From positions 74,958,001-75,022,000 of the forward strand of contig OX597826.1 of the NCBI GenBank assembly GCA_951406725.2: a stretch of 64,000 nt of DNA, in the 5' to 3' direction. The stretch comes from Octopus vulgaris. Its lineage: Eukaryota. Positions 719-60,897 of this stretch are shown here, one piece after another. The notes below the pieces were generated by a model. The model had not been told where the DNA came from and searched no databases. It saw only the letters and a program-made list of their open reading frames with translations. The translations under genes were made by a program, and so were the position numbers. How positions within the stretch are numbered: the first letter of the stretch is position 1; the number at the start of each line of letters is the position of its first letter.

Positions 719-1394
719 ACCTTTGCACAGCTTCTAACGTTGGAGATGTACTATGGTGTCAGCTGTTCACTACCACTGAACCAAGGTAACACTTCTTATT
801 TTTCAAGCACCTTCCGGAGTATTCGAGCAGTTCCAAGCAATGCTGCTTTCTGCAAGTGCTCCACCCTTATTGCACCCCCTATTTGTTCCACGTACTTCTC
901 GAGATTTTTGCTCACTGCTCCCAGGGCTCTGACAATTATTGGTACTACTACCACCTTTTTCATCGACCACAACTGCTTAACCTCCCAAGCTAACCTGTCA
1001 TATCTATCGACTTTTCTTTCTTCCTCATCGCATACCTTGTTGTCAGCTGGGCATGCTATATCTATGATCCAGCATAGTTTGCTTTCTTTCTCAATTAAAA
1101 CTATGTCTGGCTTCCTATTCTCTATCTCATGGTCACACTGAATCATAAAATTTCATAAGATCTTTGCATTATCATTATCGATGATGCCTTCTGGTTTGTG
1201 GTCATACCAATTTTTTGCTCTGTCAAGTCCATACTTGTTGCAAAGTATCCAATGGACAAGCCTGGCTATATTGTCGTGGCGTCTCTTATATTCCTTCTGG
1301 ACTAGTGGCATACATTGGCAGGTAATATGCCATACAGTTTCACCATTTCGTCCACAAATTCTGCACTTATCACTTTCTGATGTGTTGTCTATTC
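719..1394 (-). mobile_element. 5'-truncated R4/Dong-clade LINE (CCHC finger + restriction-like endonuclease) inserted in (TAA)n
   Basis: CRICG..ETVWHI..C, YKRRHD, RKPDIVLIEK..IID, KVDRYDRL and VVPIIV motifs; ORFs 1153-1452 and 796-1146 are one frame broken by a single W>stop; (ATT)n on both sides. Confidence 0.85.
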
Positions 1395-17577: not shown

Positions 17578-17820
17578 TTGTTACATTATTTACATTATTT
17601 ATATTATTTACATTTGACGGATATCTGTCCTCAGCTTGTTTGTTGTTTACACAAAGTTTCGGCTGGTATACCCTCCAGCCTTCATCAGGTGTTATATTCA
17701 AGTCAGGTGGTATTAGCTGAAACGTTGTGTTAACAACAAACAAGATGAGGACAAATATCCATCAAATGTAACTAATGTAAATAATGTACATAATTCCTCA
17801 TCTCTTAAATATAGAACTGA
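17578..17820. mobile_element. Penelope-like inverted-arm element (family 2)
   Basis: Inverted arms with GATATTTGTCCTCATCTTGTTTGTTGTTAAC-type sequence and (ACATTATTT)n; the same element occurs at 54340-54610 and 60552-60897. Confidence 0.65.
17649..17692 (-). ncRNA. Minimal hammerhead motif, same family as 60801 (stem III mutated)
   Basis: Minus strand ACAC-CTGATGA-A-GGCTG...CAGCC-GAAA-CT-TT-GTGT. Confidence 0.55.
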
Positions 17821-18212: not shown

Positions 18213-18314
18213 ATACATATATATATATATATACATTCAAAATGTGACCTCGTGTGTACCGTTGGCGATTTTTTTTCCTCTGTCTTCCCTTCTCTGGATC
18301 TTTCCTTTTCCTAT

Positions 18315-18349
18315 GTTTCTGACGAAGAGCTCCGCTCGAAACGTTAAAC
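18315..18349 (+). ncRNA. Minimal Penelope-type hammerhead motif (35 nt)
   Basis: GTTT-CTGACGA-A-GAGC-TCC-GCTC-GAAA-CG-TT-AAAC; stems I and II pair perfectly; stem III is reduced to the palindrome AACGTT. Confidence 0.7.
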
Positions 18350-19417
18350 CCTCCTTCTTTCCCTCTTCCCTGAGCATCCAATAATACTATATTTGTTCCA
18401 CGTCCTTGTGTTGTTGTGTTTTTTTGTGCTTTCATGTTTGGATTAACTATATATATATATAAGGCATTACTTGTTTTAGTTATTAGATTGCAGCCAAGCC
18501 TTAAAGGGGGTAGTTGGACAAATCAACCCAAAGTACTTTAATTTTTTAACCTGGTACTTATTCTCTCTGTTTTACTGAACCACTAAGACATAGGAATATA
18601 AACAAACCAACACCAGTTATCAAGTGGTGGTGAAGGACAAATATGAACACACACACACACACACACATATATATACTCATGCCAGCATGTGTGTGTGTAT
18701 ACATATAGGCATGGCTGTGTGGTAAGAAGCTTGCTTCCCAACCACTTGGTTCTGGGTTCAGTCCCACTGCGTGGCACCTTAGGCAAGTGTCTTCTACACT
18801 ACCCTCAGGCTGACCAAAGCCTTGTCAGTGGATTTGGGAGATAGAAACTGAAAGAAGCCTGTTGTGTGTGCGTGTGTGTGTGTGTGTGTCACAGTGCATC
18901 TACATGCATATTTCTGTGTCTATCTTTGTCCCCCATGACTACTTGACAACTGGTGCTAGTGTCTCCCCATAACCTAACGGTTATGTCCTGGGGCCAATTC
19001 ATTCAACTAAAGAAAATAAATTCCCAAAGTCGCTGCTCCAGCATGGCCACAGGCTAATGACTGAAATAAGTAAAAGATAAAAAATATTATTCTTTTATCC
19101 TTTTACTTGTTTCAGTCATTTGACTGCGGCCATACTGGGGCAGCACCTTAGATAGTTTGAGTCGAAGAACTTGACCCCAGGACTTATTCTTTGTAAGCCT
19201 AGCACTTATTCTATCAGTCTCTTTTGCCAAATTGCTAAGTGACAGGGACATAAACACACCAACATCATTTGTCAAGTGATGGTGGGAGGACAAACACAAA
19301 CACAAAGACACACACATAAATATATATATATATATGTATATATATACATATATATACACACATATATATATATACATATATATACACACATATATATATA
19401 TACATATATATACACAC

Positions 19418-20856: not shown

Positions 20857-21250
20857 GTGGCTGTGTGGTAAGTAGCTTGCTAACCAACCACGTGGTTCTG
20901 GGTTCAGTCCCACTGCGTGGCACCTTGGGCAAGTGTCTTCTGCTATAGCCTCGGGCCGACCAATGCCTTGTGAGTGGATTTGGTAGACAGAAACTGAAAG
21001 AAGCCTGTCGTATATATGTATATATATATGTGTGTGTATATGTTTGTGTGCCTGTGTTTGTCTCCCTAGCATTGCTTGACAACCGATGCTGGTGTGTTTA
21101 CATCCCCGTCACTTAGCGGTTTGGCAAAAAGAGACCGATAGAATAAGTACTAGGCTTACAAAGAATAAGTCCCGGGGTCGATTTGCTCGACTAAAGGCGG
21201 TGCTCCAGCATGGCCGCACTCAAATGACTGAAACAAGTAAAAGAGAGAGT
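20857..21250 (+). mobile_element. SINE family A
   Basis: Near full-length copy. Confidence 0.85.
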
Positions 21251-21638
21251 ATATCACCATGACCGACAAGGCTATCAGATGTTGCTACACATCGCTGGTC
21301 ACAATGTGCTTTCGCATCGTTTTAGCCTTCAAATGACACCACCCTGCTGGCTAAGCAAGCAGGCCAACAGAGGAAAGAGTGAGAGAAAGTTGTGGTGAAA
21401 GAGTACGGCAGGGATTGCCACCACCCCCTGCCGGAGCCTCGTGGAGTTTTAGGTGTTTTCGCTCAATAAACACTCACAACGCCCAGTCTGGGAATTGAAA
21501 CCATGATCCTACGACTGCAAGTCTGCTGCCCTAACCACTGGGCCATTGTGCCTCCACACACACACACACATATATATATATTCAATTTTAATTCAATTTT
21601 TTAAAAAAATATCATTCGATACATAATACATATTTTAT

Positions 21639-21728
21639 ATCTCTGAAGAGCAGAAGTGTTGTCTATAAGTGCTTATCAATATAGGACTTCATTATAGGGA
21701 CAACCTTTTTGCGAAACGATCGTAAGAT
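21639..21728 (+). ncRNA. Type I hammerhead ribozyme motif with extended stem II
   Basis: ATCT-CTGAAGA-[GCAGAAG..GTTGTC..TATAA...TTATA..GACAAC.CTTTTTGC]-GAAA-CGATCG-TA-AGAT. All core nucleotides are present; stem I ATCT/AGAT; palindromic stem III; GUA cleavage triplet. Confidence 0.8.
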
Positions 21729-22644
21729 GCTTAAAAACTTAATTCAAAACTTTTAAACTTTCAAATTTATTTTAGACATCATATTTATATTTTTAATATT
21801 TATTTATTTACTTATATTTTTAATACATAAAGTCTTTCATATGGGTATATCTTTGTGAAAAATTTGATATTGATTTCCTTATATTAATAATAATAATATA
21901 TTATTAAAAAGTATATGTCTGTATATATATATATATATATATGATAATATATAAGTGTATGCATATATACATACATATATGTACATACCTACATATGTAT
22001 GTATATATACATGCATATATGGGTACAGGACATCGAAAAAACGTTGAACACAATGAGAAACAAAAACATAGAAAACGAACTTTTTTTCAAACAACGAAAG
22101 AAACAGAGAAACAAGACATACAACATAAAGACTATTCCCCTTCTTCAGTTGTCCCTGTTTCATCTACCCCGAGTTTTGAAGGTAAGGGCAAGATGCGACT
22201 TCGTTGAAACAGTCCTTCTCGCAAAGCAAATTAGATAAAATTTGGGATTTTTTGCTGAGGGTAAAAATGGTGACAAGAACAGAACAATAAGAACAAAAAA
22301 AGATAGTAAAAACAATAAAAGACAGAACAATGAGAATAAAACAGTAAAAACAAATGATGAGGGTTGCTAAGCCAAGACAATGGAAAAATTATTCTGAACA
22401 CTTCACTTCAATAACACTATTATACTTGTTCCACATCCTCGCGTTGTTGTGTTTTCATGTTTGGATTAACTTTATATATATATATATATATATATACATA
22501 TATTTAAATAATGAGGGTGATAAATTGAATATTAATTTAATTAATATCAATTTAAAACCAGCAGCCTATCATATAGAAAAGTCTGAAAATTCATATATAT
22601 ATATATATATATATATATGTAGGCTGTATACGATATGTATTGGC

Positions 22645-27978: not shown

Positions 27979-28030
<52 letters not shown>

Positions 28031-28384
28031 AAATGAGATAGGGGTTGAAAATTCAACCCACCATGGGATAACATATATCCAATATACTGCTAGATAGGTA
28101 CCCAACAAGACTAATACATAGATGTTAAAAATTGCCAAGCAATTAGTTCATCTATTGTATTATATGGGCAAAGGTAATAATATTACCGTAAATTAATACT
28201 ACAAAATTAGAAAATGGAGAAACATACTTAAATCAATAAAACATCAACTATCAGATGATACCCAATCAATACTTTATTACACCATTACATATCAGTAAAG
28301 GCATTATACAAAATATATAGTAAATATAAATAGACAAGGAAATAGAAATATAAAATATAAGATATAATATGTAATTATATCATA

Positions 28385-28494
28385 TCTGACAGCTGTTTCG
28401 GCAGTAAGGGCAGTCATACCTCATTTAACCTATAAGCCATAAAGGCAGGTATAAATGAGGCATTAACAAGGATGCCCCACGGCCTCTTCAGAGA
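28385..28494 (-). ncRNA. Type I hammerhead ribozyme motif with 85-nt stem II (copy 1)
   Basis: Reverse complement of 28974-29083. Confidence 0.8.
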
Positions 28495-28973
28495 ATTTAA
28501 TTTTTTATAATTGTGAAAAAATTATTTTTCCATATACATATAAATATAAAAATATAAAAATGTAAAATATAAAAACTTGTGCATAAACTCCATAATGCTA
28601 CACATATATAATACTCATTGATACAATAATGCAAGGTAAACAAAACAAAATAAAACAAAATATATATCAGTGTATATATTAATATTAATAAGCACAGTTA
28701 TTTTACATATTTGGCTAATAGTTCTAAAAACTAACACATAGGGAGATGTATGCGCACTACTATTTAAATTAAAATCATACCTATACCTGAAAAATAATAA
28801 TAAAAAAATAATAAAAAACCATAGTTCAGTTCATAAAATTATAAACCTATAAAAGTCAATAAAAATTACTATTAATATTAATAATAATAATAATAATAGA
28901 TACAGTTATGTTTGCACCAAGTCCATCCTTTCAAAATCGAAATAACTATGAGTTACATTATAACAAATTAAAT

Positions 28974-29083
28974 TCTCTGAAGAGGCCGTGGGGCATCCTT
29001 GTTAATGCCTCATTTATACCTGCCTTTATGGCTTATAGGTTAAATGAGGTATGACTGCCCTTACTGCCGAAACAGCTGTCAGA
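28974..29083 (+). ncRNA. Type I hammerhead ribozyme motif with 85-nt stem II (copy 2)
   Basis: TCT-CTGAAGA-GGC...GCC-GAAA-CAGCTG-TC-AGA with a GUC cleavage triplet. Stem II folds as GTGGGGCA/TGCCCTTAC, ATGCCTCATTTA/TAAATGAGGTAT and ACCTG/TAGGT. Confidence 0.8.
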
Positions 29084-29499
29084 TATGATATAATTACATA
29101 TATTTTATATTTTATATTTCTATTTCCTTGTCTATTTATATTTACTATATATTTTGTATAATGCCTTTACTGATATGTAATGGTGTAATAAAGTATTGAT
29201 TGGGTATCATCTGATAGTTGATGTTTTATTGATTTAAGTATGTTTCTTCATTTTCTAATTTTGTAGTATATATATATATATATATATATATGCAGATAAT
29301 AAAATACATTAATGCTACATCAACGTTTTCTAAATTTTCTTCTGAATATTTATAAACCAGGATTTATATATTATTTTAAGAATATTATTATTCACAAAAA
29401 GTACTAGGCAATGAACCAGTAATTCATTGGATATTACTATCCCTTAATGAGACTGTTTTAACCTCTAATTGAATGTATATATATATATGAATATACAAA

Positions 29500-30186: not shown

Positions 30187-30187
<1 letters not shown>

Positions 30188-30625
30188 CTACAAAATTAGA
30201 GAATGGAGAAACATACTTAAATCAGTAAAACATCAACTATCTGATGATACTCAATCCATACTTTAATACACCATTACATATGAGTAAAGGCAATATATAA
30301 AATGAAATGAGATATACAGTAATAGTAAAAGTAAAAAGATAAAGAGATATAAGTAAAAAATTTCAAATATAATATGCAAATAAATCAAAACTGACAGCTG
30401 TTTCGGCAGTGAGGACAGTCATACCTCATTTAACCTATAAGCCATAAAGGCAGGTATAAATGAGGCATTAACAAGGATGCCCCACGGCCTCTTCAGAGAA
30501 TTAAATTAAATTTGTTATAATAGTGAAAAATATTATATAATCATATACATATAAATATAAAAATATAAAAATGTAAAATATAAAAACTTATACATCATAA
30601 TGCTACACTTATATAATATAATACA
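30187..30625 (-). mobile_element. Third, more diverged copy of the same Penelope-like arm
   Basis: Aligns to 28198-28615; flanked by TA-rich microsatellite. Confidence 0.7.
30391..30499 (-). ncRNA. Hammerhead motif, same family (copy 3; stem I shortened)
   Basis: Same core and stem II with two substitutions; the 3' strand of stem I reads AGT instead of AGA. Confidence 0.7.
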
Positions 30626-32554: not shown

Positions 32555-33288
32555 ATAATAATAATAATAATGAAATTATTGTATACAGTGCTTGGGTGCA
32601 TCACAACTTGTCAAAAGTGCATATAAAGCATATGCAGTAATGTACAAATGTCTGGAAAGCGAATAATGTACGAGTCAGATACATGCTTGCATGTGTATGG
32701 AGGGGAGAAAATCAGGTGTAGTGTTGGCAAATCTCAGGAAACATGGAAGTTTTGAAGGATGCAGTGCTCCGACAACTAATAACTGACGCCGGCAGTTTGT
32801 TCCATGCTTCAGCAACTCTTAGCGTGAAAAAACGTTTCTGAAAGTCATGGGAGCTGTGCTGTTTTTTGACTTTGTAAACACGTCCACAGGTGTTAGACAG
32901 GTGGAGTTTGAAAAGGTGCTCAGAGTTATTGTTAGTAAGATGGTTGATAATTTTATGGGTGTCTTCCAAGTCAGCTGCCAGATGTCGGAGTTTCAATGTA
33001 TCCATGCCCAGGGAAGTAAGGCGTTCAGAATATGGCAAATGCTTGATGGTTGCACATTACTGAACGGTTTCCAGACGATTAATATCCTGGGCAAGTTAAG
33101 GGTTCCAGACCGGTGATGCAAATTTGGCCGTACCATAGCTATATAAAGCCTCAGATAGATAGTCGGAGAGCGGCTCACAAAGGACTTGGTAAGTAATGCC
33201 AAGACACCCTCAGCCTTCTTAGCAATTTTAGCAATGTGTTTTGCCCAATGCAAATTGCTGTCGACAATAATGTCCAGGTCATGTTCAC
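32555..33288 (-). mobile_element. CR1-group LINE 3' fragment
   Basis: HIAKIAKKA, LYIAMVRP, PYSERL..L..L.LR, FFTLRVAEAWNKLP..V motifs; (TTA)n tail. Confidence 0.85.
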
Positions 33289-54339: not shown

Positions 54340-54610
54340 AGTTCTATATTTAAGAGATGAGGAATTATTCACATTATTTACATTTGATGGATATTTGTCC
54401 TCATCTTGTTTGTTGTTAACACAACGTTTTGGCTGATATATGCTCCAACCTTCATCAAGTGTCTTGGGGAAATTTCGAACCTGGGTTCTCATTCCCCAAT
54501 ACACCTGATGAAGGCTGGAGGGTATATCAGCCAAAATGTTGTGTTAACAACAAACAAGATGAGGACAAATATCCATCAATTGTAAATAATATAAATAATG
54601 TAAATAATGT
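54340..54610. mobile_element. Penelope-like inverted-arm element (family 2), both hammerheads degenerate
   Basis: Inverted arms around 54480; GAAA is changed to AAAA in both ribozyme copies. Confidence 0.65.
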
Positions 54611-60551: not shown

Positions 60552-60897
60552 ACAGTTCTATGTTTAAGAGATGAGGAATTATGTACATTATTTACATTAT
60601 TTACATTATTTACATTCGACAGATATTTGTCCTCATCTTGTTTGTTGTTAAGGAAGGTGAGGAAAATATTAGATTTATAAGCCCTAAAATTCACTCCATA
60701 ATTACCCACAGGCATATGGTGTAGTGGTTAATTCCAATTAATAATAATAGCAACAGCAACAACAACATTGAAAAATACCCAGGTTCGAAATTTCTCCAAG
60801 ACACCTGATGAAGGCTGGAGAGTATATCAGCTGAAACGTTGTGTTAACAACAAACAAGATGAGGACAAATATCCGTCAAATGTAAATAATGTAAATG
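60552..60897. mobile_element. Penelope-like inverted-arm element (family 2) in TRIM last intron
   Basis: Inverted arms 60595-60651 and 60843-60897 plus a hammerhead at 60801. Confidence 0.6.
60801..60844 (+). ncRNA. Minimal Penelope-type hammerhead motif in the last intron of the TRIM gene (antisense)
   Basis: ACAC-CTGATGA-A-GGCTG-(10 nt)-CAGCT-GAAA-CG-TT-GTGT. Confidence 0.65.

Follow-up and report, generated by a model that had tools for sequence, protein, structure and literature searches.

A long-armed type I hammerhead motif in Octopus vulgaris, probably the ribozyme of a truncated Penelope-like element

Nucleotides 21638-21729 of a 64,000-nt stretch of the Octopus vulgaris genome (the 64-kb window in what follows) hold a complete type I hammerhead motif that is probably the ribozyme of a 5'-truncated Penelope-like element (PLE) residing in (TA)n, with cleavage predicted to follow A21724 and to require the pairing of two copies. 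By sequence the motif qualifies as a type I hammerhead, and in arm length it departs from the PLE consensus. Its stem II arm is about three times longer than usual and, to judge from the letters, that length is the one respect in which it is unusual for a PLE hammerhead. The features of the motif and its carrier are all on the forward strand.

21638..21642, forward: 5' strand of stem I, pairing with 21725-21729 through four Watson-Crick pairs and one wobble
21639-21642 with 21725-21728, forward: the 4-bp part of stem I, AUCU with AGAU
21643..21649, forward: catalytic box C3-A9, CUGAAGA, intact
21650..21712, forward: stem II arm of 63 nt, with the G10.1-C11.1 closing pair, two 7-bp helices and a less defined tip
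21713..21716, forward: catalytic box G12-A15.1, GAAA, intact
21716..21723, forward: self-complementary stem III segment, 2 bp in a monomer and 8 bp between two copies
21717-21722, forward: palindrome CGAUCG
21722..21724, forward: GUA triplet, with cleavage predicted 3' of A21724 by hammerhead numbering
21723-21724, forward: UA after the palindrome
21725..21729, forward: 3' strand of stem I
21580..21921, forward: AT-rich carrier unit of ~340 bp, with a (CA)n(TA)n tract on one side and (TA)n on the other; boundaries approximate

An earlier note on this DNA had proposed an intact-core hammerhead at 21639..21728 with a 4-bp AUCU/AGAU stem I and a cut 3' of A21724. Every element is indeed at the place proposed, and the cut agrees with hammerhead numbering; stem I lengthens to 5 bp once the terminal U21638.G21729 wobble is counted, and the stem III palindrome to 8 nt when A21716 and U21723 are included. 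As expected of type I, the CUGANGA and GAAA boxes are both intact, A21716-U21723 provides the A15.1-U16.1 pair, H17 is A21724 and not G, and three stems surround the core, which is open at stem I (5 bp, 7+7 bp, and 2 bp or, as a dimer, 8 bp). Of the attributes of minimal PLE hammerheads, the motif has a helix I within 2-7 bp, the G10.1-C11.1 pair and a short, palindromic, dimer-competent helix III. Position 10.1 follows A9 directly, without the extra base of the consensus, and in place of a helix II of 3-8 bp with a loop of at most 10 nt there is the 63-nt arm.

In the literature, dimer-cleaving PLE hammerheads are characterised by a short stem I together with a short palindromic stem III (PMC4209133, PMC6765202; these and the other papers cited are drawn on in part), a point that the earlier note had missed while being right about the hammerhead and its architecture. 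The metazoan PLE minimal type I hammerheads (Cervera and de la Pena 2014, PMC4209133) are described as having a short helix I, palindromic helix III, G10.1-C11.1, dimer dependence and low activity, and as being mostly solo motifs of truncated elements, sometimes in opposite-strand pairs 100-700 bp apart. The octopus motifs resemble them in having an intact core in type I order, a helix I of 3-5 bp, the G10.1-C11.1 pair and a helix III that is short and palindromic (some of the published members share the 6-nt palindrome length seen at 21717-21722), and in occurring as solo motifs with AT-rich flanks and as opposite-strand pairs. The differences are a stem II of 63 nt against ~23 nt in the longest of the 56 aligned examples (our own count), no base between A9 and G10.1, and no adjoining PLE frame; the extra base after A9 is also absent from several of the PLE motifs listed in PMC4209133 and PMC8557442. 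The hammerheads of Hydra-clade PLEs (Craig et al. 2021, PMC8557442 File S2), among them that of Hydra-1_oBim from Octopus bimaculoides, are similar in their (TA)n targets, 3'-end proximity, self-complementary stem III, cut-site A and frequent lack of a base after A9, but their stem II is at most ~26 nt (again our count) and the sequence of the octopus member is different. A long stem II is found in the tabulated spike-moss elements PLE-X1_sMoe and PLE-X1_sTam (9+35+9 nt and ~48 nt; PMC8557442 File S2), whose hammerheads are marked there as deviating from canonical structure; these, however, are plant elements that lack the endonuclease, target 28S rDNA and have no clear 6-nt palindrome. The 'long helix II' of PMC13725137 is 6 bp. 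The part of the literature covered yielded no paper describing animal PLE hammerheads with a stem II arm of 60-90 nt, and descriptions may exist elsewhere. Lengthening of stem II is a peripheral alteration of the sort that hammerheads tolerate, and it has a tabulated precedent in the plant elements.

The AT-rich segment between TA repeats in which the motif had been placed is real: the flanks have 12% and 18% G+C versus 37% for the motif, and microsatellites lie on both sides, at about 21556-21579 and from 21922. The boundaries of the carrier were inferred from neighbouring repeats at 21370-21565 and 21922-22243. The former, a dispersed repeat, adjoins the unit, and an abundant SINE-like family, which has a (TA)n(TG)n tract inside it, occupies 20857-21260 and about 25 other places. 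From the cut site to the next (TA)5+ tract is 197 nt, compared with 186, 206 and 363 nt for the copies of a second long-armed family at 28-30 kb, to which we return. PLE traits include (TA)n targeting and inverted truncated copies (PMC8557442). Insertion in (TA)n with the motif near the 3' end holds for 21638-21729; tandem or inverted truncated copies are lacking for this solo motif and present for the 28 kb family. On this anatomy the carrier is likely the 3' end of a 5'-truncated PLE. No Pfam match to RT or GIY-YIG was obtained in 150 window frames of at least 66 aa (the 148 longest of 347 non-repetitive frames, plus two; thresholds E<=0.1 for 6 frames and E<=0.001 for 150, with sub-threshold matches only), so it is by anatomy that the unit is tied to PLEs; truncated copies would be without an RT and GIY-YIG frame anyway.

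Among the frames seen in passing, that at 799-1152 (reverse strand) is LINE-like, with 144 relatives of which the named ones are only marine invertebrates at ~50% and the closer clusters are nameless; it and 32715-33056 (reverse strand) resemble 3'-end fragments of LINE proteins, of the restriction-like endonuclease type and CR1 type respectively. As to previously described octopus elements, neither of the two published ones checked matches 21638-21729 in the portions available, four 11-base motifs of both long-arm families have no match in the PMC8557442 supplement (where line breaks may mask some), and three octopus Naiad consensus sequences given there have ends unlike those of the long-arm families. 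Sequence words of 21575-21925 occur partly in 20 of 24 listed sequencing runs, no RNA run being among those listed (the highest shares of the 31 words being 0.39, 0.26 and 0.23; the listing covers 10 studies and 4 organism labels), and are not counted as evidence.

Could the carrier instead be a short non-autonomous element, SINE-like or a dispersed retrozyme monomer, with the hammerhead processing the RNA of the 340-bp unit? The unit is short and non-coding and its borders are repeat-like, animal retrozymes have been reported to be PLE-end-derived and to occur also as solo monomers (bioRxiv 10.64898/2026.07.22.740005), and animal non-LTR retrozymes (PMC7229834) carry a type I hammerhead in an AT-rich non-coding unit of 200-400 bp. 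The latter, however, form tandem arrays and have mostly canonical hammerheads with loop-loop contacts, whereas the 21580-21921 unit is solo, with no tandem repetition of ~340 bp in the window, and its hammerhead is minimal. Moreover, the three comparison copies vary in length, as truncated PLE ends do. We regard this alternative as unlikely and continue with the end of a truncated PLE.

What of the arm itself? Its folding energy is -16.8 kcal/mol (z -2.6), with 12 of 1000 shuffles as good and 988 worse, and a separate shuffle test gave z -2.9 with one of 200 as good. The reverse strand reaches only -10.1 kcal/mol (z -1.1; 34/200 as good), as expected if wobble pairs were kept in the forward-strand RNA. 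The description of stem II as 'rod-like' is firmly apt for the basal 14 pairs, whose probabilities are 0.66-1.0; the tip has two competing folds. Within a 171 nt context at 37 C the basal arm pairs fall to 0.35-0.52 and stem I to 0.01, which means that the monomer is not pre-organised. The longest complement between arm and flank is 6 nt, a chance level in a scoring that does not extend to non-canonical loop contacts. The carrier is single copy within the 64-kb window and covariation of its arm is accordingly lacking. An intron inside the arm, considered by eye, was dropped, being too short and having poor donor sites.

The comparison family at 28-30 kb consists of:

28385..28494, reverse: hammerhead with an 85-nt stem II
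28974..29083, forward: hammerhead with an 85-nt stem II, inverted partner of 28385-28494
30390..30499, reverse: third copy, stem I down to 2 bp

The family spans 28030-29269 and 30187-30618 as a head-to-head inverted pair and a third copy, each ending at (TA)n. The members of the inverted pair, being 480 bp apart, correspond to the opposite-strand pairs of PLE hammerheads (PMC4209133), and the 85-nt arm folds with a z of -6.1. This family is pertinent to the notion that 21638-21729 is an ordinary short PLE hammerhead with a one-off insertion in loop 2, its long arm being accidental and not a family trait. The single copy in the window and the poorly defined arm tip are in keeping with that notion, but 14 basal pairs are more than the 5-8 bp that is usual, the RNA strand is the one favoured by the wobble pairs, and in the second family three of three copies are long-armed; such an accident is quite unlikely.

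The two families had been considered to be unrelated though alike in architecture. The common architecture is borne out by a descriptor that recovers both. Unrelatedness stands at the sequence level, where the score of the arm-to-arm alignment was matched by 188 of 500 shuffles and those of the upstream and downstream flanks by 198 and 413 of 500, but being unalignable is all that this establishes and independence does not follow. In both, stem I carries UCU/AGA, position 7 is A, the closing pair is G-C and the palindrome is 6 nt long in the form C...G, and with these shared letters a single long-armed ancestor, entailing common descent with arm turnover, would seem as likely as two origins.

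Between two copies of the comparison family the 110-nt motif is identical at 107/110 positions versus 265/300 in the flanks (4 gaps; Fisher p 0.004), and the arm taken alone at 83/85 (p 0.004). Both arm changes are one-sided with the pair kept, and there is no two-sided change. This hints, for the 28-30 kb family only, at selection on the long arm, though the signal could instead reflect faster change in the AT-rich flanks, and with just two distinct sequences a shuffle control is uninformative.

Turning to function, one copy of 21638-21729 has a hammerhead fold probability of 0.0015-0.003, and a monomer fold conceals the cut site. Two copies folded freely form both arms and the 8-bp intermolecular stem III, the duplex of the 8-nt palindrome being worth -10.0 kcal/mol. 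By nearest-neighbour estimates, which leave out tertiary terms, the double hammerhead is at -47.8 kcal/mol versus -48.4 for the best free dimer, i.e. within 0.6 kcal/mol of it, and -39.2 for a pair of monomers; adding 8-nt flanks gives -49.0 for the double hammerhead, -52.2 for an arm-to-arm duplex and -43.2 for the monomers. Dimer cleavage is thus plausible on modelled energies, but with competing folds.

The predicted function, to which we give a good measure of confidence, is that of a PLE dimer hammerhead. Two copies would pair via the 8-nt palindrome to build stem III, and stem I strands would be swapped between the copies with each core then facing its partner's cut site. In the parent element, tandem or partial-tandem copies may have placed two motifs on one transcript, and such a transcript would be cut slowly and probably assisted by the protein of the element, as happens in the anole PLE, while the long arm would serve mainly as a pre-folded helix keeping CUGAAGA and GAAA together without loop-loop contact. 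The functional model is the Poseidon PLE hammerhead of Anolis carolinensis (Frangieh et al. 2024, PMC11167929), whose core-dependent cleavage occurs only with the element's protein and is not needed for insertion in vitro; it differs in having a short stem II that overlaps the start codon, whereas the 63-nt arm has no start codon. The solo copy at 21638-21729, with no partner nearby, is most likely a silent relic. That it is instead a host-domesticated ribozyme trimming a host transcript, in the manner of the vertebrate single-copy intronic and Clec2 hammerheads, is highly improbable: the core is perfect, there is one copy in the window and the Clec2 ribozyme tolerates a very long helix I (PMC6155905), but a 2-bp stem III cannot support one-copy cleavage and the motif is surrounded by a field of repeats with no gene detected.

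How readily would such a motif arise by chance? A strict descriptor (stem I of at least 3 bp; stem II with at least 3 closing bp and at most 200 nt; palindromic stem III of 4-12 nt) has three matches in the 64-kb window, the 21638-21729 motif and two of the 28 kb family, and none in any of 300 block-wise dinucleotide shuffles searched on both strands, which places core and stems above chance. A looser one has four, the same motif and the three 28-30 kb copies, against one match in 40 shuffles and a perfect core in none of them; neither scan found a third long-armed family within the window. A descriptor of the published type misses 21638-21729. Rfam has no hammerhead match for it (among the best 150 of 218; a second search gave three unrelated weak ones), an absence that is non-discriminating since the short hammerheads of the window are likewise without one among the matches listed. 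Gapped core patterns have no match in viral contigs and none in prokaryote genomes, as expected for animal DNA, and a single 21-base metagenome match, lying at the end of a contig and with unrelated GC-rich DNA after it, was put down to chance. Assembly of short motifs by chance in AT-rich DNA, with which the lack of an Rfam match and of a second copy in the window would accord, has next to no credibility in light of these shuffles and the z of about -2.6 to -2.9 for the arm.

The window also has short hammerheads that match the published PLE descriptor, at 18315, 60800 and 17692, from which it is evident that a long arm is not typical of the hammerheads of this genome. The lineage-wide class of long-arm hammerheads suggested in the earlier note is drawn from two families within a single 64-kb stretch and is at most a candidate. 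Those at 60800 and 17692 are one family with six blast matches, inverted pairs included; at 17623-17756, 54393-54570 and 60625-60870 it is a short PLE-type minimal hammerhead with a 21-nt stem II, in several inverted pairs, one of which produced a spurious Rfam match to MIR7533 at 54.4 kb. The hammerhead at 18315-18349, minimal with a 12-nt stem II, is in a short unit between microsatellites (18236-18448) whose 3' end recurs at 22409-22484.

A different arrangement is seen in a repeat family with two copies, 75% identical, at 2911-2941 and about 22145-22195 (both reverse strand; the latter 400 bp from 21638-21729). CUGAAGA and GAAAC are both retained in it, and its blocks run cut site, GAAA, CUGANGA. 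The 2911-2941 copy, whose stems have 8, 5 and 2 bp, fits the non-circularly permuted 'type SGC' hammerhead (PMC10085705) and could be a candidate permuted hammerhead in an animal repeat; the other copy fails the permuted hammerhead test. In the control, under thresholds set post hoc, one shuffle in 300 attained 15 pairs and a short linker. By eye the same permuted block order appears at the 3' ends of Naiad_Obim and Naiad_Ovul (PMC8557442 File S5), with a 6-bp stem I and a 5-bp stem III round a GUA triplet and an indistinct stem II. Naiad_Ovul is labelled 'HHR_half_core' there, and eight Naiads are 'half core' in that paper. If that reading of the ends is true, some 'ribozyme-less' Naiads carry a permuted hammerhead.

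For the host, the 21638-21729 copy is probably an inert relic. For PLEs the implications are wider. Counts of their hammerheads rest on descriptors that, in the portions of the papers drawn on, limit stem II to 7+10+7 nt, i.e. ~24 nt at most (PMC4209133), or search with a 7-17 nt spacer (PMC8557442), and the presence of two long-armed families, mutually unalignable, within a single 64-kb window suggests that such counts miss a fraction. Hammerheads so missed bear on the claim that some PLE clades are without ribozymes. The PLE hammerhead is dispensable for insertion in vitro (PMC11167929); an arm both conserved and paired would point to something beyond cleavage. Our most tentative proposal, possible though doubtful, is of an animal PLE clade in which a selected 60-90 nt stem II rod is a module in its own right, a protein-binding, dimer-docking or editing site. 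Motifs of that kind would be invisible to published descriptors, and long-armed or otherwise rearranged hammerheads may therefore be present in PLE families scored 'ribozyme-less' or 'half core'.
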